The notes below the pieces were generated by a model that worked only from the letters and a program-made list of their open reading frames with translations, did not search any database and was not told where the DNA came from. Source: a virus. Taken from it: a stretch of 64,000 bases of DNA. How positions within the stretch are numbered: the stretch's first letter is position 1; every line of letters starts with the position of its first letter. Position numbers and translations under genes: made by a program. Of this stretch, positions 1-54,590 are shown in pieces. Location: positions 25,391 to 89,390 of IMG/VR virus record IMGVR_UViG_3300021478_000794; one strand, 5' to 3'.

Positions 1-314
1 TCATTACGGGAGTCGGAACGGCCTATCCGACGACCTGGACTCCTCCTCCGTCGATCGCCGGATCGGTTAGTAACCTCGGCGTCTGGACGAACCCGTCCTC
101 CGCTTTAAGCGATTTCCTTAACGTCCAGTACCTTTCGGTCGAGGCGGTTTGCGCGGTTACCCGGGCGAGGATTAAACCGGGCGAGCCGGTCCTCATCCTT
201 GACGAGCATATTATCTCGAAACCGGCCTTTACCCGGTTACTCCGGGAAAGCTTCGAGAAAATGATTACGCCGAAGGTCGAGACGATGCACGAAATCTCGG
301 ACTACGATAGTTAA
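1..314 (+). CDS. 5'-truncated hypothetical protein ending in the shared MHE-x-S-G-W-D-type tag
   Basis: Frame open from nt 3 to TAA at 312-314; ends ITPKVETMHEISDYDS*; not in the ORF track. Confidence 0.8.
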   Translation, partial: ITGVGTAYPTTWTPPPSIAGSVSNLGVWTNPSSALSDFLNVQYLSVEAVCAVTRARIKPGEPVLILDEHIISKPAFTRLLRESFEKMITPKVETMHEISDYDS

Positions 315-3150: not shown

Positions 3151-3191
3151 AAAAAGAAGCGGCGGAGGTCGAACCTCCGCCGTTTTCTTTT
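3151..3191. terminator. bidirectional intrinsic terminator
   Basis: aaaaagaagcggcggaggtcgaacctccgccgttttcttt hairpin between convergent genes. Confidence 0.8.
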
Positions 3192-3726: not shown

Positions 3727-3741
3727 ATTCTCTTCTCTTTT

Positions 3742-4992
3742 TTACTTCTTTACGCCTACCCCGGCGAAGATGTCCTTCCCTCGCCCTTTCTCCTCCTGGC
3801 CCTTAATCCAGTTCGGATCGTCGACGTAGGTCCGGATAATCTTACACCCCACCGGAATCGCCTCGGTCGAATGCTGAGAGGTTAGGACGAAGCACCACTT
3901 CGGCGGTACGATTAACTTCGGCGGAGGATTCGCGAACGCCCCGTCCGTTAGCATCATGTATCCATCCATATCCTTATAGAAGGGCTGCTTTAAAACCGCC
4001 GCGATCCCTTCCCAAGGGCTCGTCCCGCCCCCTCCCTCCATAGGGACGTAATTATGCGGCCGCATCGGGCCCTGCCGGATCCCGTCGTCGAAGGTAAAGA
4101 TATAAAGCTCCGCGACGTCCGGCTTAACGCTCTTTAGAATCGAGGTAAAATCGAATTGAATCCCGATATCGAAAACCGAACCGGAGACGTCGACGAAAAC
4201 CGCCATCTTACAAATCTTCGACCGCATTACGGGGACGTTCCGGGCCGGTAACCGGACGTTCGACCCGCTTATCTCGCCGAGCTGGGCGCGGACGCTCTGG
4301 AGCTTAGTTTCCTCCCGCGTCCACATATCCTCGTAAACTTCCGCTTCCCGGCTCTTAAACCAGTCCCGAACCGCCGCTTTCCAGAGTCCCGTCTCGATCG
4401 GTCGGTAGCCGGTCTGATTTAACTCGCGGCCCGCGCCGCCGCCCCGGCTTAGGCGTTTATCTTTTCCGTAACCGGGATGCAGTTCCGACATCCGGGTAAT
4501 CGGGTTCCGCTGTATCCGCTCAACGGCTTTCCGGACTTCGTCCTGAATAATCGGGTTCCCGTCTTCCCCGAGCGTTTTATTCCGCTCTTCGTCCGCTTCT
4601 TTCGAGGCCGAATGGGCGTACTTCTCCCCGAGCTTATCGTATTCCGGATCGTCCGCTCCGGACGGATCTCCCACTCCCGTTCCTTCGCCCTCGCCCTCGC
4701 CCGGTTCACCGCCCTCTCCCTCGCCTTCTCCCTCGCCCTCTCCCGGTTCGCCCGGTTCGCCTTTTTCGCCCTTTTTAGGTTTCGGCTTCTTCTTACCGCC
4801 CGGACCCGCGCCGCCTCCTCCGCCCTTCTCCTGATCGCGCCAATCTTCGGTCGACGTTTCGTAGGACGGAATAACCGCTCCCTTACCGTCCGGAGTAGCG
4901 TCGATCGCGCCCGATCCCTTCGGGATTTCCATCCCGGGCGCTAAAACGAGCCGTAAATCGCCGATCGTCGTCTTTAAGGAATTAAAAGGCAT
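3742..4992 (-). CDS. VWA-domain protein (DUF2201 C-terminal-like)
   Basis: MIDAS DVSGS, GGGGTS and LTDG motifs; G/E-rich linker. Confidence 0.8.
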   Translation of the reverse strand: MPFNSLKTTIGDLRLVLAPGMEIPKGSGAIDATPDGKGAVIPSYETSTEDWRDQEKGGGGGAGPGGKKKPKPKKGEKGEPGEPGEGEGEGEGEGGEPGEGEGEGTGVGDPSGADDPEYDKLGEKYAHSASKEADEERNKTLGEDGNPIIQDEVRKAVERIQRNPITRMSELHPGYGKDKRLSRGGGAGRELNQTGYRPIETGLWKAAVRDWFKSREAEVYEDMWTREETKLQSVRAQLGEISGSNVRLPARNVPVMRSKICKMAVFVDVSGSVFDIGIQFDFTSILKSVKPDVAELYIFTFDDGIRQGPMRPHNYVPMEGGGGTSPWEGIAAVLKQPFYKDMDGYMMLTDGAFANPPPKLIVPPKWCFVLTSQHSTEAIPVGCKIIRTYVDDPNWIKGQEEKGRGKDIFAGVGVKK

Positions 4993-5013
4993 ATCGAATA
5001 CATTTCGTTTTCT

Positions 5014-6576
5014 CTAACGCTGCCCCTGTAACCGTATAAGCCAGCTAACCATTCCCTTAAGGTCCGCCGGAGTTTTAAAGATTTCGGTCGGGCCGAAGGT
5101 AAACTCTTCCATCCCCTTCGCCGCGAGAAGGGCGGCCTGACGTCGAAAGTCGCGGACGGTCGTCTTAAACGGAACGGGCCCCTTTTCCGCCGCGATCTTT
5201 TGGAGCGCGATAATATTTGGCGAAAGCGGGATCCGGGGTATCGCCGAGCCTCCCGGCTCTTCCGCCGGAGCTTCCGCCGCCGGAACTTCTTCGGGCGTTA
5301 GAGGAGCTTCGGGAACCGCCGCCGGAGCTTCCGCTTCCGGAGCCGCCGCCGTAGCTTCCGGAGCTTCCGGAGCCGTCGGCGGTTCTTCGATCCCTCCTAA
5401 CGTTCGCTCCGCTTCCCGGGCGACGTCCGCCGCTAACTTTTTATTAAGGTCTTCTTGGGCCTCGACGACCGCTAAGTCGTCGGCATCGTCCCGCTCCTTA
5501 ATTAAGCGGTCGATCTCGTCGAGATTCGCGATCTCCGGGATCCCGACCGCCGCCGCGAACGGCTCCCAAGTCATCGGGCGCGTTCCCGCCGCCTTCATCC
5601 TCGCGTACGTCTCGACGATCTTCCGGGAGGTCGGGAAAGACTTTTTCCCGAGCTGGGTCGTTATCCCGATCGCCCGCGAGAGCCAGACCCACTCGGGCTG
5701 GGTAATATCGTCGGTATAAAAAATATCCGCTTCGCCTTCCTGATCGGCGACCCGCTTTAGTTTCTCGATAAGCCCGTAGGTATCGTGGGACTTAACGAAG
5801 ACGACGTCGCCCGGCTCGACGTAAACCTTCTGGCTGACGACCTCTTCGGAAGATTCCTCGCCCCGGTCGACTTTCCGCTTCCGCTTAACCTGGCGACCGA
5901 AGGATTTATTCTCAACGGCTTTTTCGAATTGGTTCGGGTCGATCCCCTTCGACTCCATATCGGTAATCATCGCCTGATATAGTTCGAGGCAAGTCTGATC
6001 GATTTCGACCGTTCCTTTTACCTCGCCCGGCTTAACGGGATACTTCTCCCGAACCGCTTTCGGGAGGTCCTTCCAGTAGATCCCGTTCTGGAGCGTCCAA
6101 TCCTGTCGCTCCTCGGTCCGGAGCCCCGAGGACCACTTCAGCGTCCGCTTTAGGAACTCGTTAATGTAGGCGTCCGTAACGATATTCCAGATCTGCATAT
6201 ACTCGATCTGAAACATCTTAATCTGGCGGACGTGACCGAAAATAAGGTGCATAGCCTCGTGAGCGATAACGAAGGCGATATCGCCCGCCGAGAGGCTCGC
6301 CGCGAACCAGACGTTAAAGTAGTAATCGATTTTACTATTAACCGGGTTAAACCCGACGCAAGCGGTCGAGATCTCCGGATCGGTCGTCAGGATCGGTTTC
6401 CCCATTAAGGCCCCCTTCCACCCCAGCCACCAATGGGCCGAGGCTAAGATCCGGGCCGCGAATTCGAGACGTTTATCGGCGAGCTGAAAAGTTCTTTCGG
6501 TCGCCGCTTGCTCCTCGGGAGTATGATATTTGTACTTCTCCCGTAGCTCCTCTAATTCTGTAATTGAGTGACCCAT
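5014..6576 (-). CDS. HExxH metallopeptidase-like protein (DUF2201 N-terminal-like)
   Basis: TACV...FVIAHEAMHLIFGH...WNIVTDAYIN. Confidence 0.8.
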   Translation of the reverse strand: MGHSITELEELREKYKYHTPEEQAATERTFQLADKRLEFAARILASAHWWLGWKGALMGKPILTTDPEISTACVGFNPVNSKIDYYFNVWFAASLSAGDIAFVIAHEAMHLIFGHVRQIKMFQIEYMQIWNIVTDAYINEFLKRTLKWSSGLRTEERQDWTLQNGIYWKDLPKAVREKYPVKPGEVKGTVEIDQTCLELYQAMITDMESKGIDPNQFEKAVENKSFGRQVKRKRKVDRGEESSEEVVSQKVYVEPGDVVFVKSHDTYGLIEKLKRVADQEGEADIFYTDDITQPEWVWLSRAIGITTQLGKKSFPTSRKIVETYARMKAAGTRPMTWEPFAAAVGIPEIANLDEIDRLIKERDDADDLAVVEAQEDLNKKLAADVAREAERTLGGIEEPPTAPEAPEATAAAPEAEAPAAVPEAPLTPEEVPAAEAPAEEPGGSAIPRIPLSPNIIALQKIAAEKGPVPFKTTVRDFRRQAALLAAKGMEEFTFGPTEIFKTPADLKGMVSWLIRLQGQR

Positions 6577-6599
6577 TCTACTTTAAGACATTTCGGTCT

Positions 6600-8360
6600 T
6601 TAAGGACGAACTCCCGTCGTCGCGGGAGCGGGAGTCCCGCCGACCGGCGCGGGAGCGCCGGGCCTCGTAGCCGGAGCGCCCCCTAACCCTCCGGCGACTT
6701 TCCCTTTTCCGGGCGCGGTCGCGACTTTCGCCGGAGTACCCTTCTTTTCGATTCCGTACTCGATATTCCCTTGGATCGTCGCGTCGATCTGGGTCTTACA
6801 CTTATTGTAGATATCAGTTTCGCCCCGGGTCGGAGGGAGGACGTGGGGGAGATCGGGCTGGCCCTGACTTGTCGCCCAAGCCTTCCGCCACTCTTCCGGC
6901 TTATTCTGCTTCACCCACAGGTACCAGCACAAATCCTGCCGGAGAACGATCCCCGCGACTTCGGGATGCATCGCGCAAATAATCCGCGAAAAATTCCCGA
7001 TATCGTCGAGCGGGATTTTCGCCTCCCCGTCGAGCGTCGTCTTCCTTAAGCCCGCCTCGATTACCCCGGCGATCTTCGCCCCCTTAGCTTGGTCGCCCTT
7101 TACTTCGGCGATCTTCGTCTCTAGCTCGGGAGCGTCGTTCCGGAGCGACGAAAGCGCCGCCGTCGCGTCGCCGAGGACCGCCCGCTTTAACTGTTCGAAA
7201 GGCATATTTACGCCCGTCGTTTTCGAAGAAATCTTATGATGTTGGGCGATCATATTAAACCCCCGGTTCCACCACGCCATACTCTCCGCCTTTTCCCCGG
7301 GCCGGGGATTAAAGACGTCGTTATTAAGGCGCTGAATCTTGCGCATTATATAATAAAGAACCCGAGGGGTAATAATATCGCGTAAATAGACCGGCTGGCC
7401 GTCTTTACCTTCCTGAGGGTCGGCGTTTAAGATCTCCTTATACCACCATCTTAGGCATTCCCGGGCGACGCTCATACCGACCTGCCCCTTACGGCCCGGC
7501 CCGACGTAGTGATGAATTTTGGGAGCCGCCTCGACCGTTATAATCGCGTCGAACCGTCCGCCGAGCGCCGACTCTAGCTCCTGGACCGCCCGGACGATAT
7601 CTTCCCGGGGCGGGTTAATCGCCGCCCAAACCGCCTTCAACTTCCGGAACGGAACGCCGTTAATCGTCCGGGCGTGCACTAGCTCGAAAAGCTGGTTCTG
7701 GGTGGCGTGAGAGACGCGGTTAATTTCGTCGAGGAAAATCATATCGACGTGCTCTAGGTCGTGCTTCCGGACGAATTCAAGGCACGCCTTCCCGGTCTCG
7801 TCCCGCCGGACGTTCGGGATACCGACGAGGTTTAGGTACGGGTCCATCGTCGGAGCGTTAAAATAAGCGACCTTCCATTGGACAGTTTCCGCCGATTGCT
7901 CGATCATGGTCGTCTTCCCGACTCCCGACTCCCCGATTACGAGGACGGCTTGGTCGACGTGCTTCATGGCGATCCGCATCTGCGTCTCCCATTCCGCCTC
8001 TTCCATATCGAAAAAGATCCGGTCGAGAGAGTTCCCCTTCTCCTGCCCTTTAGGGATATCCTCCATCGTCTGGGGGACGTCGGGCGTCCGGTCGTCGAAC
8101 CCGTAATCCGGTATCTCCCACTCCTCCCCCGTCTCCTCTTCCCGGTATTTCTTTCCGGCTTCGTCGATTCCGACCCGGCTCCGGGGAAAGGTAATGGACG
8201 GGAGCTTACTTTCTCGCTCAATTCTTTTCGCGATAAGCGCCGCTCGCTCTTCTTCGAGCGAAAGTTTCGGCTTATCCCCGTTCGAGGGCTTCGGCTTACC
8301 CTCGTTTAGAAAGGAGTCGATATCGTTAATTATGGAGGAGGAACCCTCTTCGTTTTTCAT
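6600..8360 (-). CDS. MoxR-type AAA+ ATPase
   Basis: Walker A GESGVGKT, Walker B IFLDEINR, sensor AAINP, ALGGRF arginine finger. Confidence 0.85.
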   Translation of the reverse strand: MKNEEGSSSIINDIDSFLNEGKPKPSNGDKPKLSLEEERAALIAKRIERESKLPSITFPRSRVGIDEAGKKYREEETGEEWEIPDYGFDDRTPDVPQTMEDIPKGQEKGNSLDRIFFDMEEAEWETQMRIAMKHVDQAVLVIGESGVGKTTMIEQSAETVQWKVAYFNAPTMDPYLNLVGIPNVRRDETGKACLEFVRKHDLEHVDMIFLDEINRVSHATQNQLFELVHARTINGVPFRKLKAVWAAINPPREDIVRAVQELESALGGRFDAIITVEAAPKIHHYVGPGRKGQVGMSVARECLRWWYKEILNADPQEGKDGQPVYLRDIITPRVLYYIMRKIQRLNNDVFNPRPGEKAESMAWWNRGFNMIAQHHKISSKTTGVNMPFEQLKRAVLGDATAALSSLRNDAPELETKIAEVKGDQAKGAKIAGVIEAGLRKTTLDGEAKIPLDDIGNFSRIICAMHPEVAGIVLRQDLCWYLWVKQNKPEEWRKAWATSQGQPDLPHVLPPTRGETDIYNKCKTQIDATIQGNIEYGIEKKGTPAKVATAPGKGKVAGGLGGAPATRPGAPAPVGGTPAPATTGVRP

Positions 8361-12687: not shown

Positions 12688-14373
12688 TTAAATTACCCTC
12701 GTCGTATTCCCGGAATACTTATTATGTAGATAGGCGAAGAAGGAAGGCCAATCCCCCCGGTTTTCCTCGGTCGTAATCTCCGCTCGCGAGAGGTAACGGA
12801 TCCGGGCTTCGGTATGTTCCCGGCTAAAGCGGGTTAGGAAATCGACCGGCATCCAGACCGGGGTATAATTCCCGGTTTCCCCGCTCTTCGCCCGGACCCC
12901 GCGCCCGATCCGCTGGACGACCCGGACGAGGCTCGCTCCGCCCGCCGCGAGAACGACCGAACCGATCCCCCGGATATCCTCCCCTTCGTCGAAGATCGTC
13001 GAGGCGAGAAGAACCGGGGTCTCGCCCGCTTCGAAGGCGGCGACGATCGCCCGGCGTTTCTTAGTAGTATGGGAGCCGTGGATAATCCCGATCTTCGCGG
13101 CCTCGATCGGGTCGCTCGCCCGGGTAAAGTAGCCCCGGAGGTAGTAGAGCTGGGCGATCTTCTCGGCGAGGACGAGGGCGGGCCGCCCGGCGGCGAGCGA
13201 GGCCCGGACGAAATCGAGGAGATCGGCGTTCCGCTCCTCCGCGAGAATAAGCATATCCCGCCCATAATCGGGATAAAGGTAGGTCTCGTCGTCGTCCGGG
13301 TTTAAACCTTTTTCCCGGTCGACCTTTACCCGCTCCGTCCAGAGCGTCCCGTCCTCCCGGTCGACCCGTAACCCGGTAACGTAATAGTCGCTCGCCTCTT
13401 TTTCCGGCGACCAGCGGATCTTCCGCCGTTTCCCCGGCCCGTCGAGCGATTCCGGGAATTCCCGGGCGCAAGCGACCGCTTCAGCGATAAACCCGATTTT
13501 CTCCATCTCCGACCGCCGGACCCGGGTAACGATCGGTCCTCCGATCCCGATTATCGTCCAGTCGGAAACCGGGTCGTCGACCTCGGGGGTCCCGGTAAAC
13601 TGGAAGATCGGAGCCTCCTCGACCCGCCGTAAGATCCGGAGGTAAGCGTCGCCGGTAACCCGGTGGGCTTCGTCGATTATTACCGCTCCCGCTCCGGCCC
13701 AGAGCTTCGCGAGGTCCTTATCCCGGATCGTCCCCTTCGTAAAACCGTGGATCGAACTGAGCGTCTGAACGGTACTAAAGATAATTTTATCGGTCGGTCG
13801 CGGGCGTTCGCCGTCCCCGAGGAGCCCGACGAGATCCGCGATCTCGGGGCAGCGCATCTTTACCCGCTCCGCCGCTCCCCGCATTAGGCCGGTCCGATGG
13901 ACTAAAAAGAAGACCGGCTCGGTATACTCTAGGAGGATCCGGGCGAGGAGGGTTATCGATTCCGTCTTCCCGCTCCCGGTAACCCCTTCGACGGTCCCGC
14001 CGCCCGCCCGGAGTAGCTCCCGGGTCATACGGCGCTGGTGTTCCGCAAGCGTTATCCCCTCTAGGGCGAGACTTTCGACGAGCGGAAGGTAAGGAGCCGC
14101 GACCCCGGCCCATTCGGCCTCGTAGGGGCGGTAATCGACGGCGTATCCCTCTTTCCGGGCCTCGGCGACGATCTCCGAAGCGAGCCCCCGGAGAAATTGG
14201 CCTCCTTCGCTAATCATGTGCACTCGCCCGTCCCAGTACCCCTTCCGGAAAGCATCGATCTTATACCGGTCCGGGTTTAACCAGGAGAACCGGAACCGGA
14301 GCGTCTTAAAAATCGACCATTCGCTCGGTTCCCGCTCGATACAACCGAAAAGGCCTTTAAACACGATCCTCAT
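12688..14373 (-). CDS. uvsW: SF2 DEAH helicase, UvsW-like
   Basis: TGSGKT, DEAH, TGT and QRIGRGVR motifs. Confidence 0.85.
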   Translation of the reverse strand: MRIVFKGLFGCIEREPSEWSIFKTLRFRFSWLNPDRYKIDAFRKGYWDGRVHMISEGGQFLRGLASEIVAEARKEGYAVDYRPYEAEWAGVAAPYLPLVESLALEGITLAEHQRRMTRELLRAGGGTVEGVTGSGKTESITLLARILLEYTEPVFFLVHRTGLMRGAAERVKMRCPEIADLVGLLGDGERPRPTDKIIFSTVQTLSSIHGFTKGTIRDKDLAKLWAGAGAVIIDEAHRVTGDAYLRILRRVEEAPIFQFTGTPEVDDPVSDWTIIGIGGPIVTRVRRSEMEKIGFIAEAVACAREFPESLDGPGKRRKIRWSPEKEASDYYVTGLRVDREDGTLWTERVKVDREKGLNPDDDETYLYPDYGRDMLILAEERNADLLDFVRASLAAGRPALVLAEKIAQLYYLRGYFTRASDPIEAAKIGIIHGSHTTKKRRAIVAAFEAGETPVLLASTIFDEGEDIRGIGSVVLAAGGASLVRVVQRIGRGVRAKSGETGNYTPVWMPVDFLTRFSREHTEARIRYLSRAEITTEENRGDWPSFFAYLHNKYSGNTTRVI

Positions 14374-14379
14374 TTTATA

Positions 14380-14808
14380 TTAGCTATCCCATCCCGAGAT
14401 TTCGTGCATCTCCGCGATCTCGATTTCGTACCGGACCGCTCCGGCGAGCGAGTCGCCTTCGGAAACGGTAAAAAGCCGGTATCCGGCCCCGGTCGCATAC
14501 GTATTTATTACCCGGACGACTTCCTCTAACGAGGGAGCGCTCTTCTCCCAAAAGCGCTCGCTAAAAATCCGGTTCCAATTTAGTAAGAAATTAAGCGCCT
14601 CCGACCCGTTAATAACGGCCTTTAAACCGCTCGACGAATTCCAGAGGATCCGTTTTTCTAAAACTTTAAATTCGCCGTTCGCGATCTCTCCCGAAACGAT
14701 CGCGAGATCGGTATTACTTAAGACGATATTTAACGCCGGGTTGAGCGGTCGCCGGTAGACGACCGATTCGGTTTTTAGAAGCTTTAAAACCGTCTCGGAA
14801 TTAGGCAC
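14380..14808 (-). CDS. hypothetical protein with C-terminal tag
   Basis: Probable GTG start at 14808 just after the RuvC stop; ends EIEIAEMHEISGWDS*. Confidence 0.75.
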   Translation of the reverse strand: MPNSETVLKLLKTESVVYRRPLNPALNIVLSNTDLAIVSGEIANGEFKVLEKRILWNSSSGLKAVINGSEALNFLLNWNRIFSERFWEKSAPSLEEVVRVINTYATGAGYRLFTVSEGDSLAGAVRYEIEIAEMHEISGWDS

Positions 14809-23242: not shown

Positions 23243-23770
23243 TTACGATTCGGAGAGGCGACGGTTTAATTTCCGAACGAGCGCCGCTTCGTCCCATCCG
23301 CTCATCGTATGCATCGTTTCGACTTCCGGGACCTCCACCCAAAACTCCCCCAGTTGAGCGTTTTCCGGATCGTCCTTATTTTCCTCGTAATCGTTCATAA
23401 CCGCCCAGGTCATATCCTCGATGAACCAGGCGGCAATTAACGAGCCGATATCGGCGAGCTGCTTAATACTATCCGCGCCGGGAAAACTCGCGACGAGATG
23501 GAGGACGTTCGGCTCCTGGCGCGGGATCTTTTTCGTCGAAAAACTCCCGGCGTTCGGGTCGGGAAGCGAGATCGTCTCCCGGGCGAACTCGTCCGCCGCC
23601 GCCCAAAGCTCCTTCCCGAAGCGCTGGTAGAGGCGGTAGAGTTCCTTATTATTCTTAATTCCGGGAATCTTGCACGCCAGGACGTTCCCGTTATTTTTCT
23701 TAATAAATTCGAACGTTTTTAAATTGAACCGGTACGCCCGGGCGATTTTTAGAGCGAGATCGACGTCCAT
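23243..23770 (-). CDS. putative internal head protein with internal tag
   Basis: VPEVETMHTMSGWDE-A followed by a short tail ending LSES; lies among structural genes. Confidence 0.65.
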   Translation of the reverse strand: MDVDLALKIARAYRFNLKTFEFIKKNNGNVLACKIPGIKNNKELYRLYQRFGKELWAAADEFARETISLPDPNAGSFSTKKIPRQEPNVLHLVASFPGADSIKQLADIGSLIAAWFIEDMTWAVMNDYEENKDDPENAQLGEFWVEVPEVETMHTMSGWDEAALVRKLNRRLSES

Positions 23771-32606: not shown

Positions 32607-34034
32607 CTACGGACCGAAACTGAAGTTGGTAGGATAGTTCTGGATGTTGCCCTTCGCGTAGTAGCGCGAGTTAACCGGCTTCTTCCCGAACTGGCTCGCC
32701 CACGCGGCCCGGTTCGTAAAATCGTCCAGCATTATCGTCGGAGTACGGTAGAGTAGAAGCCAGGGGGCAAAAATATAACCGGTTCTCATCCAGTTATCCC
32801 CTTTATACCCGAGGAGGTATTCGGTCGGGTCGGCGTGCGGGTCGGCGTAGACCTTGTATTTCCCGAGGAGGGTCCCGATAAAGGTAATACCGTCGACCTC
32901 ATTTTTATGAGGAGCCGGATCGAACTGCGGATGGGTCGCGAGGAGGGCCATTCCCTGCACCCCGACTACCAACCAGTTCGCCATGACCCGGTCGGTCGCC
33001 CGGAAGATAAAGGCATCGAGTTCGATAATCGCGTCGACGAAGGAGAGCTTATGCTCGGTCCAGGAGACCCCGCTCGGTAGCGTCGAATCCCAGGAGTTAA
33101 CCCCGGCCCCGGCCATATTATGGAGCTGGGTGAGGATATGTCGATCGATCTCAAACTGAATCTCAGAAGCGACCGCCGCCGACATCTGGGCCTCGACCTT
33201 CAGGCCGTGAAGGGACTTGAGGACCTGTTCGGCTTCTTGCGACCAGCGGGCGCGTAACGCGTACCGTTGGGCGGTAATAACCGAGGAACTGAGGGTAAAG
33301 TTGACCTGCGGGAGGTTGGTCGAACCTTCCGAATTCCAGGAGTAGGAGACCGTAACGACGTTCCCGGTATTCCCGGTAAGGGTTAGGCTAATCGCCCCGG
33401 TAACGTAATTAATCGTCCCGGCGGAAAGACCTCCGACGGCGGGGAAATTTCCGTTCGAATCGTCGACGTAGGTATCGCTCCCGTTCGTTAGAATAACGGT
33501 ACCGGGACGGATCGGGGTAAAGGCGATCGTCGCGTTGGTCGTACCGGTTCCGGCGGCGGTAAGCTGCTCGGAAGTAATCTGCTCCGAAGCGAAATCGCGG
33601 TTTGGGCCGTGACCTCCTCGGGAATCCCAGAGTTTATCCCCCTTCGTTACGTCGCCCTTAGTCGTTCCGGCGATGTAGTCGAGGAAAAAGACGTTGCCGC
33701 TGGGGCCTTCGAGGGGCTGTACGGTTACGAGTTCCGGCGTAATAAGATTCTCCGCCACCATCGAGATAACCGGGAAACCGAACTTTTCCCAAGCGCCGAC
33801 GTTGATCGTCTGGGAATCTTCGTTAATCGCGTCCTTCGCGAAAACGCGGGCATTTTCGAGCATTGCGGCGACGAAGATCTTTTTCTCGTCGCCCGGGATC
33901 GCGGCGACGATCTCCTTCCAGCCTCTAGCTTCGAGGATCGATTGGCCCTTCTTGAGGCCCCACGGGGTCTCAATCAGCTTTTCGAGCCTCTCCTGTTTCT
34001 CGCGGATAGCGCGAGATGAGATGTAATTTTGCAT
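32607..34034 (-). CDS. gp23: major capsid protein, T4 gp23-like
   Basis: LEN, VQPL.GP.G.VF, R.L.A.WS.E..Q.L...HG, EI..EIDR, LLGYKG...GY.FAP; Ig-like insertion. Confidence 0.92.
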   Translation of the reverse strand: MQNYISSRAIREKQERLEKLIETPWGLKKGQSILEARGWKEIVAAIPGDEKKIFVAAMLENARVFAKDAINEDSQTINVGAWEKFGFPVISMVAENLITPELVTVQPLEGPSGNVFFLDYIAGTTKGDVTKGDKLWDSRGGHGPNRDFASEQITSEQLTAAGTGTTNATIAFTPIRPGTVILTNGSDTYVDDSNGNFPAVGGLSAGTINYVTGAISLTLTGNTGNVVTVSYSWNSEGSTNLPQVNFTLSSSVITAQRYALRARWSQEAEQVLKSLHGLKVEAQMSAAVASEIQFEIDRHILTQLHNMAGAGVNSWDSTLPSGVSWTEHKLSFVDAIIELDAFIFRATDRVMANWLVVGVQGMALLATHPQFDPAPHKNEVDGITFIGTLLGKYKVYADPHADPTEYLLGYKGDNWMRTGYIFAPWLLLYRTPTIMLDDFTNRAAWASQFGKKPVNSRYYAKGNIQNYPTNFSFGP

Positions 34035-34245
34035 TTAGAAAACGAGGTTGTTCTTTTTAAGTTTTTCCGCAACAACCACCGTCCATTCTTCGGCTGAGAC
34101 GTCCCTCGTAAAAGGAGTCGCTTACTAGCCGGGGCTGATAAATGAAAGGGGGATCTCTCCTCCTTCACTTACAAGTACAGATATACTTCGATGGGCGAGA
34201 AAATGAAGGAGGGTGGGAAAAAGGGGGGCGGTATTTCTCCCCCGT

Positions 34246-35595
34246 ATGGAAGAAGATTTCTTTCGATCCCTAGAGGCGGAGGACCTTCGTCTCCTAAACG
34301 GTTACGACGAAGCCCGGCGGGGTACGCCCCGGGCGACCCTTTCCGACGACATAAACGAACTCGTTAAAGATTACGACTCCGCTAAGGCGATTAAGGGCCA
34401 GCTAGACGCCTTAAATTATTTCGGCTCGGTTATCGCCCGGTACGGTTCGATCGAAGCTTGGAAGAATTTCGATTTCGAAAAACGCGATAAAAGCGTCTTC
34501 GGACAGGATTGGTTCGAACAGGGGTTTAAGGAGATCAGCCTCTATTTCGTTATCGAATCGTCCCGGGGGAAGATTAAAAGCTTAGAGTTTTCGGATAAAA
34601 TTCTCCGGATCCGTATCATGGTTTACGGGAAATCGGGCGTAAGTAAGGCGGAAAATCTTCCCTCCTATTATTGGCACGAGAAGAAGAGCTATTTTCCCGC
34701 GAAAGCGATCCCGGTAAGTTGGCCGGGGCCGAGCTTACTCGCCGCTTCGCTCGACCCCGAAGTCCGGAAGCGAGCCTCGGAACTCGTCGGCGAAGCGTAC
34801 GGGAAATTTTTAAGCGGCCTCCTTCCGCCCGCTCCGGATATCGAAACGATGCATACGATAAGCGGCTGGGACGAGGCGAGGACCGCGCTCCCCCGGACGA
34901 CCGTCGATACGACCCCGATCCTTAAAGACCCGGAAGAAACGAAAAAAGTTGAAGACCGGTTAAAGGCCGCGAATTACTTCGATAGCGCTTTTACCCGTTC
35001 CTCCGAAATCACCGTTCAGAAATATTTTAAGCCCGGCGCGACGGAAAAAGATTTCCGGTCCGCTCGCCTTTATATGCGGATCGGACTCCGGCGCGGACGT
35101 TCCGGTTATCGTCCGGCTCTCCATATCGAAACCGACATTAGCGGAACCTACGCTCCCGGAGAGGATGTAACCTATCGACCGGTCCTTAAAAAGGATTACC
35201 CGGCGTCGGAAATCCCGGCGGTTTGGCCGGGGTACGCCTTAACTAGCCCTTCTCTCGTTCCCGAAGTTAGGAAGAAGGTTAGCGTTCTCTTCGCCGAGGC
35301 TTATAAGGTTTTCCTAAAAGCGCTCTCTCCGCCGCCTCCGGATATCGAAACTATGCATACTATTAGTAACTGGGACGAAGCTATAATCGGGAAATTCGAA
35401 GCGCCGGACGCCGATTCGAAGCCGTTTTCGATGTGGTCGAATACCGATAAATATGTCCCGGTCGGGAGCGAGGAAGACCGGGAGCTTCTTTACGGGATCG
35501 AAGAATCGGAAGAATCGGAAGCGACGGTCGGAGCTTTTCTCGCGGTCGGGAAGTTAATGGAAAGTATAAAAAGTAAAACCCCGCCCGAAATGTAG
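34246..35595 (+). CDS. tandem two-domain polyprotein, each domain ending in the tag; putative internal head protein
   Basis: Two homologous domains ending PDIETMHTISGWDE-A and PDIETMHTISNWDE-A; leader ends LLNGYDE-A; GTATTT motif upstream of MEEDFF. Confidence 0.8.
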   Translation: MEEDFFRSLEAEDLRLLNGYDEARRGTPRATLSDDINELVKDYDSAKAIKGQLDALNYFGSVIARYGSIEAWKNFDFEKRDKSVFGQDWFEQGFKEISLYFVIESSRGKIKSLEFSDKILRIRIMVYGKSGVSKAENLPSYYWHEKKSYFPAKAIPVSWPGPSLLAASLDPEVRKRASELVGEAYGKFLSGLLPPAPDIETMHTISGWDEARTALPRTTVDTTPILKDPEETKKVEDRLKAANYFDSAFTRSSEITVQKYFKPGATEKDFRSARLYMRIGLRRGRSGYRPALHIETDISGTYAPGEDVTYRPVLKKDYPASEIPAVWPGYALTSPSLVPEVRKKVSVLFAEAYKVFLKALSPPPPDIETMHTISNWDEAIIGKFEAPDADSKPFSMWSNTDKYVPVGSEEDRELLYGIEESEESEATVGAFLAVGKLMESIKSKTPPEM

Positions 35596-35601
35596 GAGGT
35601 A

Positions 35602-36015
35602 ATGAATAATATTACCGACTCGGAAATTTCTACCTTAACCCAATTCGTCGAAACGGTCCGTACTTTCGCGGGAGATCTTTCCGCTTACTTTACTAACCTT
35701 CGCGAAAAATTCTTACCCTTAACCGAACATAAGTTTGAGATTTGGGAGGACGATCTAAAGGCGAATACCTTTCTTTACCGCCTTCTCGACTCCGCTTCGA
35801 CGGGCCGTTCCCGAATCGATCCCGCGCTCTTAGAAGAAATCCGGGGCTTTATTGGCCCTTGGACCCCGAAAAAGGGCGAAGAAGAACTCGCGGCGGGCCG
35901 GGCTTCTTGGAAAGAGGTTCTCGCCTCGGTCCGAAAAAATCTAACGACGGGCGGCGATACTCTAAAGATCGCGATCGAGACTTCGGAAGAACTACTAACG
36001 GTTTTAGAGTACTAG
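35602..36015 (+). CDS. hypothetical protein
   Basis: CGAAATGTA and GGAGG upstream. Confidence 0.65.
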   Translation: MNNITDSEISTLTQFVETVRTFAGDLSAYFTNLREKFLPLTEHKFEIWEDDLKANTFLYRLLDSASTGRSRIDPALLEEIRGFIGPWTPKKGEEELAAGRASWKEVLASVRKNLTTGGDTLKIAIETSEELLTVLEY

Positions 36016-36071: not shown

Positions 36072-37478
36072 TTAAAGCTGGCTGAACGGGTTCGTCCGGT
36101 GCCGAGTCATAATCCGGAGGAGATCGTGCTCCTCGGCCTTCGACTCTTTTAGCTTCTTCGATTCGCTCGCCGATCCGGAAGGCCCGATGACCTTACAGTC
36201 GCCGGGGCCGAGCGAAGATTTTCCGCTTCCCTTCGTCCCGTCCTTTACCTTCTGGTCCTCGCCGCCGACCTTCGTCGCCGTCTCCCCGGTCCCGTCTTCT
36301 AGATCTTCGTCGGTATCCGCCGCTTTCTTTCCGTCGCCCGGTCCGGCCATATCGCAGTCGCCCGGCCCGATCGCCGCCGTTCCCGATTTCCCGCCCTTCG
36401 TCCCGTCGGTCCCGGTTAGATCCTCTCTAATCCGCGACTCGTCTTCTTTCTCTTTCTTCGGCTTATTATCCGCCGTCGCTCCGGCTTTCGGTTTTTCTCC
36501 GGCCTTCTCCTTCTTCTTCGCGAGGATCTTCTTCATGAACTCCGGATCCCCTTCCGCGATCTTACTCGCGTCCTTAACGCCGTGTTCCCGACAGAGCGCG
36601 ACGAGCGCGGTCGAAATCTCTTTCTCCTCGCTAAGGGCGGTCTGAAGCGTCCCGATCTCGGTCTTCGCCCGGGCGAGAAGGGCCTTATTCCGTTCGATCC
36701 GCGCCTCCCACTCTTTCGACCCTTCGACCGTCGCGAGCTTCCGCCGGGCTTCTTCGAGTTCTTTAAGAAGGGGATGATGCACTCTAATCCGTTCCTTTAG
36801 CTCGTCGGCGAAATTCCGCCAGCGTTCCCCGTAAACCGCGCTCTCCCGGAGCCGGGCGATAACCTGGACCGCCGCTTTAAGTTCTTTCGATTCGAACGAA
36901 GTTTCCTTCCCGAAATCCTCTTCTCCGCCGCCTTCGTCGCCGTTCCCGCCGATCGGCGCTTCCGCGAAATCGTCTTCGCCGCCTTCCCCGCCTTCTTCCC
37001 CGCCCGATTTAGCGCTAGAGATTAGGCCGTGAACGTCGACTTCGCCTTTATCTAAAAATTCCTGATAAGCACCGGAAAGATCGGCGGTCTCTTCGGTTCC
37101 CGGGCTCATCCCCTTTAGGACCGCCTTTAGGACCTCGTCGAAAGCGCCCTGATCGACGGAGGAGCCTTCCATTCCCTCCTCGCCGCCGTTCTCTTCCCCT
37201 TCGACGCCCGGCGGAAGATCCGAGCCGCCTTCGGTCGGTTCGTCGACCTTATCCTCGAAACCGGCGCTAAAATCGTCCATCTCCTTTAGGAGCTTATTCC
37301 CGTAGGCCGATACGGCGCGATCTTCGGCGATATAGTTAGTGATCGTCGTCCTCATGTCGTCGAGTTCTTCGGTGAGGCCGACTTTCTCTTGAAAGCCGAG
37401 TTTTCGAACGTTGGTGGAGGTGATCCGCTTAAGAGCGACACCTACCTTACGCATTTCACCAATTAAATTTTTGGACAT
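36072..37478 (-). CDS. nested in-frame scaffold (gp22-like) product
   Basis: GTATTTAG motif at 37502-37509 inside the protease gene, upstream of in-frame ATG (MSKNLIGEM). Confidence 0.55.
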   Translation of the reverse strand: MSKNLIGEMRKVGVALKRITSTNVRKLGFQEKVGLTEELDDMRTTITNYIAEDRAVSAYGNKLLKEMDDFSAGFEDKVDEPTEGGSDLPPGVEGEENGGEEGMEGSSVDQGAFDEVLKAVLKGMSPGTEETADLSGAYQEFLDKGEVDVHGLISSAKSGGEEGGEGGEDDFAEAPIGGNGDEGGGEEDFGKETSFESKELKAAVQVIARLRESAVYGERWRNFADELKERIRVHHPLLKELEEARRKLATVEGSKEWEARIERNKALLARAKTEIGTLQTALSEEKEISTALVALCREHGVKDASKIAEGDPEFMKKILAKKKEKAGEKPKAGATADNKPKKEKEDESRIREDLTGTDGTKGGKSGTAAIGPGDCDMAGPGDGKKAADTDEDLEDGTGETATKVGGEDQKVKDGTKGSGKSSLGPGDCKVIGPSGSASESKKLKESKAEEHDLLRIMTRHRTNPFSQL

Positions 37479-38132
37479 AGGACTGGTTTGGGAAGTTGGA
37501 ACTAAATACTCTCGACTCTCGGCAGTTTCACTCGATTCTCTTTTCGCCGCTTTCGACGACCGGTTTTCTCCCGCGACCGGTTTAACCCGCGCTCCCGGGA
37601 CGGAGTTATCGGCGACGAAGTCCCAGGTAATAAGGGTAAACGACTCGGGGATAACCCGCTGGACCCCTTCGTTCATCGCCTCCTCGACTTCCCCTTCGCC
37701 CCGGGAAGAGATCCCGACCGGTACTCCGGCCTCTAGTAAAGCCCCGGCCTTCCGTCCGTCGGGGGTATTAAGAACCGTCGCCTCGCCCCAAATTTCCCCG
37801 TTCCCTTTATCCCAGGCCTTCGTAACGATATGCGAAATCGGGCCGGTTAACCGGGTTATCCCGTCTTCCGGATGCTCTAGCATCCCGACGACGCTATTTT
37901 CCCGGATCCGGTTCGTCCAGCTCTCCTCGTTTAGGACCCGATCGAAGAGCGCCTTCGGATAAATCCGGTTATTGGCGTTTTTCTCGTCGTACTTCTGAAA
38001 TAAGCCGCGCACCTTCATGAGCGGCTTAACGACGTCCGAGTTACCTTGGATTTCGATATCCTCCGTTAAATCGTCTTTAACGATTTCGAAACGGAAAGGG
38101 ATCGGAGCGGATTCTAGAATTTGACGTCCCAT
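36072..38132 (-). CDS. gp21: prohead protease (T4 gp21-like) fused to a scaffold-like region
   Basis: N.N.RIYP, G.LEHP, SH.V, LNTP.G, GISSRG.G, TWDFVA..S..GA; long acidic/coiled C-terminal region. Confidence 0.88.
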   Translation of the reverse strand: MGRQILESAPIPFRFEIVKDDLTEDIEIQGNSDVVKPLMKVRGLFQKYDEKNANNRIYPKALFDRVLNEESWTNRIRENSVVGMLEHPEDGITRLTGPISHIVTKAWDKGNGEIWGEATVLNTPDGRKAGALLEAGVPVGISSRGEGEVEEAMNEGVQRVIPESFTLITWDFVADNSVPGARVKPVAGENRSSKAAKRESSETAESREYLVPTSQTSPMSKNLIGEMRKVGVALKRITSTNVRKLGFQEKVGLTEELDDMRTTITNYIAEDRAVSAYGNKLLKEMDDFSAGFEDKVDEPTEGGSDLPPGVEGEENGGEEGMEGSSVDQGAFDEVLKAVLKGMSPGTEETADLSGAYQEFLDKGEVDVHGLISSAKSGGEEGGEGGEDDFAEAPIGGNGDEGGGEEDFGKETSFESKELKAAVQVIARLRESAVYGERWRNFADELKERIRVHHPLLKELEEARRKLATVEGSKEWEARIERNKALLARAKTEIGTLQTALSEEKEISTALVALCREHGVKDASKIAEGDPEFMKKILAKKKEKAGEKPKAGATADNKPKKEKEDESRIREDLTGTDGTKGGKSGTAAIGPGDCDMAGPGDGKKAADTDEDLEDGTGETATKVGGEDQKVKDGTKGSGKSSLGPGDCKVIGPSGSASESKKLKESKAEEHDLLRIMTRHRTNPFSQL

Positions 38133-41504: not shown

Positions 41505-43721
41505 TTATTGCGTCGATTGATAGGAGGGAGGCGGCGGGGCTTGAGGCGCGGCGGGAGAAGAAGGCTCGGCGGGGGTAACCGGTTTCGGCGGCGGCGGAAG
41601 TTTCCGGATCTCCTCTTCGCCCGGTTCTTTCTCCGGCTCGATCTCCGCTTCCGGCGCTTCCGGAACCTCCATTTTCTGGTACTGTTCCTCCGCCTCCCGC
41701 ATAAACCGTTCCCGGTCCCGGGCGAGGGTCTCCTGTTGCTGCCGGGAAAGATCCTTCGAAATCGTTAGCTCGGCGTCGTCGGTAAGGTAACGGACGGTCG
41801 CGAGAATATGCTTACAAAAGCCGGGCCGGGCCGCCGGATTCGTAAAGATCGGAGCCTTTCCGTTATCGGTCCGGCCCGCCGGAGTCGTTACCCCGGCCTT
41901 AACGTTCGCCCAGCTCATCCGATACTTAAAATCCTTGCAGTCGCACGACACCTCGACTAACATTCTCCGGAGATCGGAGCCCTTTAAAACCTGGGGCGGG
42001 ACCTTCTTTCCGAAAAAGCGCTGGATATTCTGGGCGGCTTTCCCGAGGACCCCTTTTAGTTTTTCGAGCCAGTTTACCTTCCCCTTCTCGGGGACGAATT
42101 TTACGTAACCCCTATGGGGCTTTCCTTCGGTTGACGGATGGGACTCGAAATTAAAGGCGAGATCGACCGTCCCGTCCTGCATCATGACGAGGGCGGGTGG
42201 CGAGGTATGGACCGCCCGGACGGTCCGTAACCGCGTCCGCCAGTAGCGGGCCGTCGCCGTTAGCATCTGGTTGTAGGTTAGGGATTCGAGGAGGAGCGTC
42301 GTCTCGCAAAGCGCATTAAAGAGAGCCCTTCTTAGGCTCTCCGCCGTATAATCCCGGACGACTAGTCTCGGGTAACCCGAGAGAAGATCCCGCCCGGTCG
42401 TTTGTAAAATCTTCTTTAACTGCGCGACATTACGCTCTTTCGTAAAGGCGGACCGGCTCGCCCGGGTCGACGTTTTTAACTCTCCCCAAGTCGTCTTAAC
42501 GAGTTCCCGGTTATTACGGGCGTCCATGATCGCGATCGGATGATTATCCGGAATACTCCGGCCTAATTTCTCTAGGTCCGAATTTCCTAACTCTAGGATC
42601 GCCGCGAAATTAATCGGGTTCCCGTTTGTATAAAGGTAACCATGCCAGAAGAGGATCCAATTCCAATTTTCGATCGCCTCCGCCGCCATTATCTTTAAAT
42701 ATTTCCGCATCGCCCTCGCATAGGCCGGATACATCGCCGGTTCCTTCGGCCGCATCGGCGGCGGATTTTCGTCGTACCAAGTCGCCGCCTTATTATCGGC
42801 ATTTAGAACCCGGGTTAAATTATGCCCTAAAGCGAGAATCGGCGCGTCGTCGGGACTCGCCGACCATTGGGTATCGTTAACCGGAAAATCCCGGTGGGTA
42901 GGGACATGGTACCAGACCCCATCTTTTAAATCGCCCTCCGGAAAGGCCGCCGGGGGCATATCTCCTCCGGCGGGATCTTTTACGTCCTCCCATCCTTTAG
43001 CCCCCGTCGTCCCGGTATCCGCCCCGGGCCTATCTCCTCCCATAGTCCCCGTAGCCGCCTCTTGCTCGAAAACGAGCGACTCGGTCCTCCCGCCTTTTTT
43101 AGCTTGACCGTGAGCCTTAAGGGCGTTCGCAATTATTTCGTCGGCGGTATTCCCGGCGGCGTTACTCGCCATCTCCTGCGCTTCCGTCGCCGTAAATCCC
43201 ATACCCCGAAGCCCTTTAATAGCGGCGGCGACTTCTCCGGGAGGAGGACCGGTCGGAGTTACCGGGGGCGGCGGAGTCGAGGATTGCTGCCCCGATTGAC
43301 TACTACTACTCGCTCTCTTTTGCTTATTGGCTTGCGACCGGTCGCAATGTTTCTGAATATGGAGAAGACCGTAATACTCGGTATTCTGACCGGTAGAACC
43401 GGGGCTCGAAATCCCGGTAATCGAAAGGTCCCGGATTTGCCGGAGCCCGTAGTCTCCATTTAAAAAATCGAAGAAAACGCGCCCATATTCGCTAAAGCTA
43501 TGGTCGGCACCTCGATATTGTACGAGGGTATCGATTACCGAGCGGACCCCCGTCCCGTCGAAAACGGGAGCGTCGTCTAACGTCCCCCAATCCTTTATAA
43601 AAACGTCGAAAGTCCCCGAACCGGGAATCGTCAGGGTCGTAACCGGCTCGTTAGCTAGTTTCGTCTTCGGATCGCGATCTTTAGCGGTTAGGGCGGTTAC
43701 GAGTTTCGGGTGAAGCGGCAT
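41505..43721 (-). CDS. multidomain protein with RuvA-CTD-like helical bundle and SWIM zinc finger
   Basis: AAIKGLRGMGFTATEA...ADEIIANAL; VSCDCKDF...FCKHILA. Confidence 0.7.
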   Translation of the reverse strand: MPLHPKLVTALTAKDRDPKTKLANEPVTTLTIPGSGTFDVFIKDWGTLDDAPVFDGTGVRSVIDTLVQYRGADHSFSEYGRVFFDFLNGDYGLRQIRDLSITGISSPGSTGQNTEYYGLLHIQKHCDRSQANKQKRASSSSQSGQQSSTPPPPVTPTGPPPGEVAAAIKGLRGMGFTATEAQEMASNAAGNTADEIIANALKAHGQAKKGGRTESLVFEQEAATGTMGGDRPGADTGTTGAKGWEDVKDPAGGDMPPAAFPEGDLKDGVWYHVPTHRDFPVNDTQWSASPDDAPILALGHNLTRVLNADNKAATWYDENPPPMRPKEPAMYPAYARAMRKYLKIMAAEAIENWNWILFWHGYLYTNGNPINFAAILELGNSDLEKLGRSIPDNHPIAIMDARNNRELVKTTWGELKTSTRASRSAFTKERNVAQLKKILQTTGRDLLSGYPRLVVRDYTAESLRRALFNALCETTLLLESLTYNQMLTATARYWRTRLRTVRAVHTSPPALVMMQDGTVDLAFNFESHPSTEGKPHRGYVKFVPEKGKVNWLEKLKGVLGKAAQNIQRFFGKKVPPQVLKGSDLRRMLVEVSCDCKDFKYRMSWANVKAGVTTPAGRTDNGKAPIFTNPAARPGFCKHILATVRYLTDDAELTISKDLSRQQQETLARDRERFMREAEEQYQKMEVPEAPEAEIEPEKEPGEEEIRKLPPPPKPVTPAEPSSPAAPQAPPPPSYQSTQ

Positions 43722-54478: not shown

Positions 54479-54499
54479 AAAGCGGGGAAAAGGAGTAAA

Positions 54500-54572
54500 T
54501 TGCGGGGGGAGGATTTGAACCTCCGATCTCCTGGTTATGAGCCAGACGACTTAACCACTGGTCCACCCCGCG
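54500..54572 (-). tRNA. tRNA-Met(CAT), initiator-like
   Basis: CGCGGGG/CCCCGCA acceptor stem with C1:A72 mismatch, CTCATAA loop, GGTTCAAATCC T-arm; CCA not encoded. Confidence 0.9.
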
Positions 54573-54590
54573 ATTCGAAAACTTATCGAA

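Follow-up and report, generated by a model that had tools for sequence, protein, structure and literature searches.

A tag-jointed polyprotein encoded between the capsid and prohead protease genes of a jumbo phage: candidate head-loaded cargo with C-terminal tags

An open reading frame (ORF) for a 449-residue protein, located between the major capsid protein (MCP) gene and the prohead protease gene, was analyzed in a 64,000-nucleotide stretch of DNA from an uncultured soil phage (the window, bases 25391-89390 of the 89,390-bp virus record IMGVR_UViG_3300021478_000794). The protein consists of a leader, two homologous modules and an acidic tail, and both modules end in the same short peptide, referred to below as the tag, which is followed at once by a small residue. 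This tagged two-module organization was confirmed. Comparison with relatives makes it likely that the protein is a precursor cut after the [WY]DE that closes each tag. The best overall explanation of the sequence data, to which we give a probability of about 0.5, is that of a cargo polyprotein that would be loaded into the phage head and cut by a protease, its products keeping the tag at their C-termini.

Layout of the precursor

The translation of the ORF agreed with the order of segments proposed in an initial annotation of this DNA, namely leader, domain 1, domain 2 and acidic tail (Table 1). The homology of the two domains, proposed at the same time, was also borne out: the modules aligned by BLASTP with 38% identity (E 8e-32), and the alignment opens at the first residue after each E/A bond (the slash marks the predicted cut), with ARRGTPRAT in module 1 and ARTALPRTT in module 2. 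Module 1 ends in IETMHTISGWDE/A, which reads ...PDIETMHTISGWDE/ARTALPRTT with the residues that follow, and module 2 ends in IETMHTISNWDE/A, or ...PDIETMHTISNWDE/AIIG. The site at the end of the leader is a bare G-Y-D-E/A that lacks the upstream MH half. In P0003, one of the related database proteins described below, the leader is 94% identical over 18 residues, and P0007 also has a leader with GYDE/A.

An AlphaFold2 model based on a seven-sequence alignment contained two folded alpha/beta domains, at residues ~35-192 and ~220-360 (pLDDT ~80). The leader, which was modelled as helical, both tags and the tail had pLDDT values below 50 and look like flexible linkers; tag 1 lies within the segment of residues 195-217. 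The tail has a pI of 4.3 and a net charge of -8; the pI values of the modules were uninformative.

The tail (60-70 residues, PFSMW.NTDKYVPV.SEED.ELLYG...) was found to be the most conserved part of P0001, P0002, P0003, P0005, P0006 and P0007. Most of the invariant columns of the family alignment (A1) fall in this segment, and the tails of seven proteins form a single cluster. The tail is a candidate C-terminal propeptide or docking segment.

The focal protein gave no match in Pfam, PHROG, PDB sequences or the ESM Atlas, and none by tblastn against 50,697 phage records. Foldseek comparison of the focal fold with PDB returned nothing at E<=0.001, and a wide VIA-align search returned only generic alpha+beta arrangements (best Z 6.0). 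Fold searches with the model therefore give no assignment for the modules, which does not by itself make their fold a new one. The initial annotation had called the two domains effectors; with no Pfam, PHROG or structural match, this label is unsupported.

A family of tag-jointed polyproteins

About 35 relatives, all from metagenomes, were identified by a profile search of 1.84 billion representative proteins and a word search with the tag profile. These proteins contain from 1 to 11 modules: one in P0005 and P0006; two to five in P0002, P0003, P0004 and P0007; seven to eleven in P0011, P0009, P0008 and P0010. P0002, P0003, P0005, P0006 and P0007 are homologues of the focal protein itself.

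The folded modules of this family (~90-320 residues) are unrelated or paralogous, and every one of them is closed by a flexible tag of the form P-x-[IV]-E-x-M-H-x-x-[SRT]-G-[WY]-D-E, behind which a small residue follows. The tag varies with the lineage (ETMHTISGWDE; EDMHxMRGYDE; EPEEMHxITG[WY]DE; HEELHTDISGYDE): the His and the G-[WYF]-D-E are invariant across these variants, and the Ser is not.

Junctions were counted from 88 regular-expression matches, one of which, in P0008, looks spurious. Glu follows [WYF]D in 86/87 internal tags, and the next residue (P1') is Ser, Ala, Gly or Thr in 83/88 junctions. Position P3 is occupied by Tyr (55), Trp (28) or Phe (5), never by Leu or Ile, and P4 is Gly in 77 of the 88. 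The terminal tags of 16 proteins end in Ala, Ser, Asp or Glu, in all cases (16/16) at the first residue after [WY]D; two of them, P0015 and the protein encoded at L071:3739-4086, stop directly after ...WDE.

When the modules were compared without their tags, they clustered across proteins in differing orders: modules 1, 3, 4 and 5 of P0008 correspond to modules 1, 5, 6 and 7 of P0010 and to modules 1, 2, 3 and 4 of P0011. Whole modules have been gained, lost or swapped at the tags. The focal module falls in the largest paralogous module cluster, which has 27 members across the polyproteins. The same module type also occurs within two very large proteins that have no tags, P0014 (910 aa) and P0016 (3260 aa).

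No domain above the Pfam cut-off was found in 18 polyproteins; the only matches, all sub-threshold, were to Methyltransf_23, Cerato-platanin and DUF3679. The DUF3679 match (21.1 bits, cut-off 22) lies exactly on the MHxMRGYDE tag, at residues 221-232 of P0007 and 632-646 of P0013; a control search found DUF3679 in Bacillus subtilis.

Scans of IMG/VR with the focal protein, P0004 and a degenerate tag pattern, and of GTDB genomes, gave chance matches only. A metagenome scan with alignment A1 returned nothing, and a scan with the tag pattern gave Ga0210402_10000046, the one contig that was informative, and L119. The tag pattern also matched ~100 soil metagenome contigs (L016-L133) through an unrelated repeated peptide, ...EGMHRFHGFDEGIFEEAER; this widespread, conserved peptide (...ADDVEGMHRFHGFDEGIFEEAER...) is probably the translation of one frame in a common mobile element.

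Probable cutting after glutamate and the candidate protease

The family comparison supports the earlier proposal that the units of the polyprotein end at [WY]DE/small residue, through the near-invariant Glu, the small P1' residue and the shuffling of modules at the tags. It equally supports the proposal that cut ends would share the register of the stop-terminated copies, one residue after WD. Since Glu is nearly invariant in internal tags and is one of four residues (Ala, Ser, Asp, Glu) at terminal ones, it appears to be demanded only where a bond must be cut. Read in this way, the Glu pattern matches the constraint expected from a Glu-specific endopeptidase, and the mature end would be the one seen in the stop-terminated copies.

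The initial annotation had named the neighbouring prohead protease as the cutting enzyme. Its first ~200 residues (domain ~30-200) match the Peptidase_S77/T4 gp21 domain (PF03420, 2.6e-15; phrog_207, 1.4e-30) and align to the T4 gp21 structure 5JBL (9e-11), with the His of LEHP and the Ser of GISSRG in place. A site scan of the MCP revealed a single hydrophobic-x-E-[ASG] site, S-I-L-E/A, at residues 32-36, and the protease has Q-I-L-E/S at its own residues 4-8, which recalls the N-terminal site of gp21 (PMC9026906).

The T4 enzyme, gp21, cuts behind L/I-x-E, its target having first been observed as a Glu-Ala bond, and Asp at P1 blocks processing of the T4 capsid targeting sequence (CTS); the phiKZ protease cuts at S/A-x-E (PMC9026906). 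The homologue of phage SPN3US, gp245, cuts after Glu (PMC10052503). The intact-looking catalytic residues, the Glu specificity of the family, the I-L-E sites and the position of the gene make the neighbouring protease the most likely enzyme, and on balance we lean slightly towards this assignment. The part of the proposal that fits less well is the residue at P3 of the tags, Trp or Tyr.

A motif of the classic type also occurs beside the tags. [LI]-x-E, typically R-L-T-E, was found at most 10 residues after the tag in 31/88 junctions, compared with a background of 7.8% (p 2.5e-13). This suggests a second, classic cut that would trim the start of the next module.

The C-terminal ~480 residues of the protease are acidic, rich in Gly and Glu and coiled, and contain two ...GPGDC... 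repeats near the end. This extension may be a fused scaffold.

The tag on stand-alone proteins

Nine matches to the pattern MH..[ST].[WY]D were counted in the 89,390-bp record, where shuffled sequences gave 0.005. Of those in the window, three (WDE-A) are internal, two in the focal ORF and one in the protein encoded at 23243..23770, and the other five are terminal (WD[AS], then stop). A sixth terminal copy is located upstream of the window. The terminal copies of the record belong to six small, mutually unrelated proteins, all of which stop exactly one residue after [WY]D (WDA, WDS or YDS).

The codons of the nine tags differ synonymously, Ser being encoded by both TCN and AGY, which argues that selection acts on the peptide and not on a DNA repeat. 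The same differences rule out a DNA repeat or a recent duplication as the source of the tags.

The protein at 23243..23770 has orthologues, P0034 and P0037, that retain both the tag and the 14-residue extension behind it. Among the stand-alone proteins (Table 1), the one at 14380..14808 is encoded immediately upstream of a DNA helicase gene (12688-14373; phrog_16, 7e-48); its AlphaFold2 model had a pLDDT of 44 and was unusable. The protein at 57049..57450 contains a ribosomal L7/L12 C-terminal domain. The stop codon of the gene at 59655-60023 overlaps the start codon of that at 59326-59658 (GC-ATG-A), an arrangement that corresponds in an operon to the tag junction of a two-module polyprotein. 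All five orthologues of the protein at 1..314 (P0033, P0035, P0036, P0038 and P0039) end in ...YDS.

A database protein, P0001, is identical to the focal protein and is encoded on a 254,649-bp contig; the window therefore derives from a jumbo phage. P0004 (five modules), P0008 (ten modules) and several tagged singletons are encoded on this same contig. By these counts the phage carries at least 30 tags, and the tag is genetically fixed, ending one residue after [WY]D, on at least 11 of its stand-alone proteins.

P0008 is also identical to an ORF on Ga0210402_10000046 (piece L055), and the pieces of that contig (L048, L055 and L071) share the dinucleotide signature of the window (CpA and TpG ~0.3; CpG ~1.5). 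There, three tagged genes follow one another head to tail on one strand and encode a singleton, P0019 (two modules) and P0008 (ten modules); the tagged P0031 is encoded further upstream on the same strand, with collagen-like fibre genes adjoining.

On the L071 piece, the tagged protein at 3739-4086 (+), of 115 residues, has a WGR domain (PF05406, 27.3 bits, cut-off 22) and ends ...WDE-stop; the next gene begins 1 nt after it, and the phage is the same or near-identical. Genes for a PAP2 phosphatase and a Wzx-like polysaccharide flippase (PF13440, 1.9e-77), at L071:4957-7905, adjoin the tagged genes and are either auxiliary phage genes or host flank.

Covariation within the tag and a possible common reader

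It had been proposed that internal copies of the tag read MHT and terminal copies MHE. This holds within the window and fails across the family, where a strict rule is excluded by internal MHE in P0004, P0012 and P0015 and by terminal MHT in P0030. The residue after M-H instead covaries with the last residue: it is Glu in 8/89 tags that end in Glu, in which Thr dominates, and in 13/16 tags that end in Ala, Ser or Asp (Fisher p 6e-9; p 6e-4 when collapsed by family, the rows not being phylogenetically independent).

Across the aligned tags there is thus a strong tendency for position 3 to track the last residue, and not the place of the tag in the protein. Either a reader would need one carboxylate at one or other of the two positions, or each tag would keep a hydrophobic-x-Glu site (M-H-E or W-D-E) for the protease. 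The Thr/Glu covariation provides a precise rule for what the reader or the protease needs.

P0030, an orthologue of the helicase-adjacent tagged protein, is 77% identical to it and almost identical over the 30 residues that precede the tag. Seven of the 13 tag residues are nevertheless changed, which gives ...EDMHTFRGYDS, a tag similar to those with RGYD in the polyproteins P0007, P0010 and P0013. This comparison suggests that the tag of P0030 evolves faster than its carrier and that tags evolve together with a shared reader.

Since cleavage alone leaves the terminal copies unexplained, the tag must have a reader, and its presence on at least 11 stand-alone proteins points to a common reader of a shared C-terminal address.

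Proposed route into the head and points that weigh against it

The following route would account for these findings. The precursor would be made together with the head genes and would enter the assembling prohead, where the acidic tail and/or the leader, or the tags, would dock on the head core. This core may be the 686-residue protease-scaffold fusion, and the tag may dock in its substrate groove. The gp21-type serine protease would then cut after each G-[WY]-D-E; leader and tail would be discarded, and each module would keep its tag as a new C-terminus.

The tag would in this way serve all its carriers as a C-terminal address for one common partner, and cleavage would give the internal copies the form of the terminal ones. 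Leader and tail may be additional docking propeptides, comparable to the C-terminal capsid-binding tails of scaffold proteins. We infer the cutting, the identity of the enzyme, the presence of the products inside the capsid and their later role, as injected proteins or as internal head or inner-body material. Loading of the modules into the head has, by our estimate, an even chance of being correct; that they are injected as effectors is speculative.

In the initial annotation the tagged effectors would be unmasked at maturation. Because targeting in T4 must precede cleavage, unmasking by cleavage conflicts with the tag as a loading signal.

Several observations weigh against head loading followed by cleavage by the neighbouring protease. 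The P3 residue at the tags is Trp, Tyr or Phe, whereas the MCP and protease sites are I-L-E, and we know of no S77 protease for which an aromatic P3 has been documented. The part of the ~254-kb genome that was read amounts to 89 kb + 29 kb, and another protease may exist; the record itself contains genes for a MoxR-like ATPase and for a DUF2201_N-like HExxH peptidase, whose Pfam match falls just short of the cut-off.

Tagged genes also lie outside the head module, next to the helicase gene and among small genes behind CGAAATGTA motifs; the L7/L12 protein and the gene pair at 59.3-60.0 kb are within that small-gene run. The ten-module P0008 adjoins collagen-like tail-fibre genes. Tagged L7/L12 and WGR domains do not by themselves indicate head cargo, and the focal phage and its relatives are known from metagenomes only.

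Alternative explanations

The same observations could be due to a different Glu-specific protease cutting at the tags, with the tag working in the infected cell, where it would dock proteins on a cytoplasmic hub. Candidates for such a hub are the cluster of a MoxR-type AAA+ ATPase with a split DUF2201 metallopeptidase-VWA protein (Table 1), a replication or translation hub, or a degradation machine. The tagged genes in the replication cluster and among the small genes of the CGAAATGTA class would fit, as would the nature of the L7/L12 and WGR domains.

The components of the first candidate are encoded in the window: a DUF2201_N-type HExxH peptidase (9.5e-5), the second half of the same PHROG family and the AAA+ ATPase. 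L071 has two tagged genes, and a small gene located two genes before the first of these gave a sub-threshold VWA-like match; the invariant Asp with a free carboxylate would suit a metal-site or carboxylate-clamp reader. The peptidase match is, however, below the Pfam threshold (22.6 bits, cut-off 23.2). The focal gene is placed between those of the MCP and the prohead protease and has their upstream hexamer. Glu at P1 with a small P1' is characteristic of the S77 family, and there is an excess of L-x-E sites directly after the tags. We therefore regard a cytoplasmic hub as unlikely, at about one chance in five.

A little less probable again is that the products, cut by the prohead protease and located inside the head as proposed above, are structural and form scaffold, core or inner body instead of being injected effectors. 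The size of the paralogous cluster to which the focal module belongs and the lack of any enzymatic or known fold match in the modules are in agreement with this, and phages of the phiKZ type fill the head with cleaved paralogous proteins (PMC9026906). The diversity and quick turnover of module content fit accessory cargo better than architecture, and some tagged proteins have nucleic-acid-binding or ribosome-related domains.

That the tags are left uncut and act as repeated short linear motifs of a multivalent scaffold, binding a partner both internally and at C-termini, is improbable. Their modelled position in disordered linkers is the one expected of binding motifs, but such motifs would not account for a Glu that is nearly invariant after internal tags and not after terminal ones, for the stop at exactly +1 in every terminal copy or for the WDE-stop endings; nor would they account for the shuffling of whole modules and the replacement of junctions by stop/start overlaps. 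Self-cleavage, with the invariant His and Asp, the common Ser/Thr and the Glu of the 10-residue motif as a cis-acting element, was rejected: whole lineages have Arg in place of Ser (MHxMRGYDE), the modules upstream are unrelated and offer no common fold on which to build an active site, and the leader site GYDE/A wholly lacks the MH half.

A broader proposal takes the tag as a general C-terminal address code: a dedicated receptor (the zymogen protease-scaffold, the capsid interior or the MoxR-VWA machine) would recognize a 13-residue peptide that has a free C-terminus in a fixed register and a Glu at one or other of two positions, and would sort at least 30 modules, both those encoded singly and those released from polyproteins. 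We put this forward tentatively, as a possibility that is more doubtful than head loading. If true, it would be a programmable cargo-loading system with no described phage counterpart.

Comparison with known systems

The arrangement resembles that of T4, in which IPI, IPII, IPIII and Alt, otherwise unrelated proteins, carry a short common peptide, the CTS, beside a Glu that is cut by the S77 protease gp21 (PMC9026906). As in T4, a gp23-type capsid protein and a gp21-type protease with catalytic His and Ser are encoded alongside. In T4, Alt too is trimmed at its C-terminus, and the cargo set turns over quickly (PMC9026906).

The T4 CTS is, however, N-terminal, ~10 residues long and removed, whereas the tag is C-terminal to its module, lies upstream of the cut and would be retained; no N-terminal targeting peptide of the T4 kind was found, the focal protein having instead a separate 22-residue leader that ends in GYDE/A, beside its C-terminal tags. 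In contrast to T4, the tag also ends stand-alone proteins at the stop codon, the cargo is strung in polyproteins of up to 11 modules, and P3 is Trp or Tyr where T4 has Leu or Ile. At the junctions P1 is Glu in 86/87 and P1' is small in 83/88, and I-L-E/[AS] sites of the classic form are present in the MCP and the protease.

The jumbo phages phiKZ, 201phi2-1 and SPN3US also have a gp21-related protease that cuts after Glu (gp175 and gp245 being the proteases named; PMC10052503, PMC9026906). Many head and ejection proteins are processed in these phages, with paralogous families and several cuts per precursor. Their sites are S/A-x-E with almost no other determinants, unlike the junctions described here, in which P3 is aromatic in 88/88. 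Their propeptides are N-terminal, save that of the protease itself, and neither a long conserved tag nor tag-jointed multi-module polyproteins have been described there.

Polyvalent proteins (Iyer et al. 2017, PMC5512222) are likewise large multi-domain phage proteins with mosaic, fast-evolving domains, predicted to be packaged and possibly processed. They are defined by known effector domains, often with a built-in MPTase peptidase (PMC5512222), whereas the present modules have neither known domains nor a built-in peptidase and are separated by one repeated tag and cut site; Pfam recognized no set of conflict or effector domains in the 18 polyproteins.

Two further likenesses are functional analogies. 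Encapsulin cargo-loading peptides are short C-terminal peptides on diverse cargo that address the interior of an HK97-fold shell; here, too, a C-terminal peptide is common to diverse proteins and a gp23-type shell is encoded. The conserved C-terminal capsid-binding tail of herpesvirus and phage scaffolds, which is cut off by the assembly protease, is comparable to the 71-residue tail. The tag system has no known sequence relation to the encapsulin or herpesvirus systems, and encapsulin cargo is not made as polyproteins.

Because of the retained C-terminal tag, the aromatic P3 and the absence of effector and peptidase domains, the system is not a member of the T4, phiKZ/SPN3US or polyvalent-protein families. 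From its sequence features it looks like a C-terminal version of protease-processed head cargo that stands outside all three. Full-text literature searches gave no description of tag-jointed phage polyproteins.

Should the tag indeed load proteins into the head, this would be the first case in a tailed phage of a capsid-targeting signal that is C-terminal and kept. The large sets of internal or injected proteins of giant phages, and their diversification, would be explained by the shuffling of whole modules between polyproteins and single genes at a conserved joint, and the known specificity of gp21-type proteases would be extended to aromatic P3 residues. The 13-residue tag, or the tag with its cut site, would then be a handle for packaging foreign proteins in phage heads.

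Coordinates and genomic setting

Table 1. Features of the window that are discussed in the text (positions in the window; a slash marks the predicted cut).
Feature	Position	Strand	Basis or remark
Focal polyprotein gene	34246..35595	+	ATG start; 449 aa + stop (ORF list)
Leader, 22 aa (residues 1-22), MEEDFF...LLNGYDE/A	34246..34311	+	sequence
Module 1, 188 aa including C-terminal tag (residues 23-210)	34312..34875	+	BLASTP against module 2
Tag 1, P-D-I-E-T-M-H-T-I-S-G-W-D-E	34834..34875	+	predicted cut after 34875
Module 2, 168 aa including tag (residues 211-378)	34876..35379	+	BLASTP; AlphaFold2
Tag 2, P-D-I-E-T-M-H-T-I-S-N-W-D-E	35338..35379	+	predicted cut after 35379
Acidic tail, 71 aa (residues 379-449), AIIGKFE...PFSMWSNTDKYVPVGSEEDRELLYG...FLAVGKLMES	35380..35592	+	sequence
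GTATTT hexamer	34231..34236	+	15 nt upstream of focal ATG
MCP gene, gp23 type, divergent neighbour	32607..34034	-	PF07068 4.6e-45; phrog_138
137-aa gene, co-oriented, just 3' of focal gene	35602..36015	+	five [LI]-x-E sites
Prohead protease gene, S77/gp21 family, two genes from focal gene	36072..38132	-	686 aa
Second internal-tag protein, 175 aa, ...VETMHTMSGWDE/AALVRKLNRRLSES	23243..23770	-	sequence
Stand-alone tagged protein, 142 aa, ...VETMHEISDYDS-stop	1..314 (3' part)	+	starts 114 nt before window
Stand-alone tagged protein, 142 aa, ...IAEMHEISGWDS-stop	14380..14808	-	relatives P0023-26
Stand-alone tagged protein, 133 aa, ...SNMHEVSAWDA-stop	57049..57450	-	PF00542 2.7e-10
Stand-alone tagged protein, 110 aa, ...IETMHEVSGWDA-stop	59326..59658	-	relative P0029
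Stand-alone tagged protein, 122 aa, ...IEIMHEFSGWDA-stop	59655..60023	-	stop overlaps start of next tagged gene
MoxR cluster	3190-8360	-	MoxR-like AAA+ ATPase phrog_1297; two adjacent genes match the two halves of one PHROG family
CGAAATGTA copies	5007, 8830, 10543, 31682, 35586, 43942, 55930, 57032, 57873, 60038, others

The divergent orientation of the focal gene and the MCP gene, and the GTATTT motif before the focal gene, were both found as initially reported. GTATTT also occurs 12-27 nt upstream of seven other gene starts, including that of the protease, where by our own estimate ~0.3 would be expected; the hexamer is common to the focal gene, the protease gene and other genes of the structural region. 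An alternative in-frame GTG start at 34213 would add 11 residues to the focal protein. The 137-residue product of the gene just 3' of the focal gene had no family match in Pfam or PHROG, and CGAAATGTA is located 16 nt upstream of this gene, within the 3' end of the focal ORF.

CGAAATGTA is present in 15 copies in the record and precedes ~10 gene starts by exactly 15 nt (first base to ATG). Most genes of the record have no Shine-Dalgarno sequence before them. The dinucleotide bias of the record (56% GC) is extreme and strand-symmetric, the ratios for CpA, TpG and CpG given above being observed/expected values. The IMG/VR label of the record is 'provirus', and its CheckV completeness is ~40%.

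No portal or terminase gene was identified in the window. The protease gene belongs to a run of minus-strand genes, and a 738-residue protein encoded at the upstream end of this run, at 41505-43721 (-), matched phrog_18980 (4.6e-10) and has a SWIM-like CxC...CxH motif near residues 590-640. A tRNA-Met gene (CAT) is located at 54499-54573 (-).

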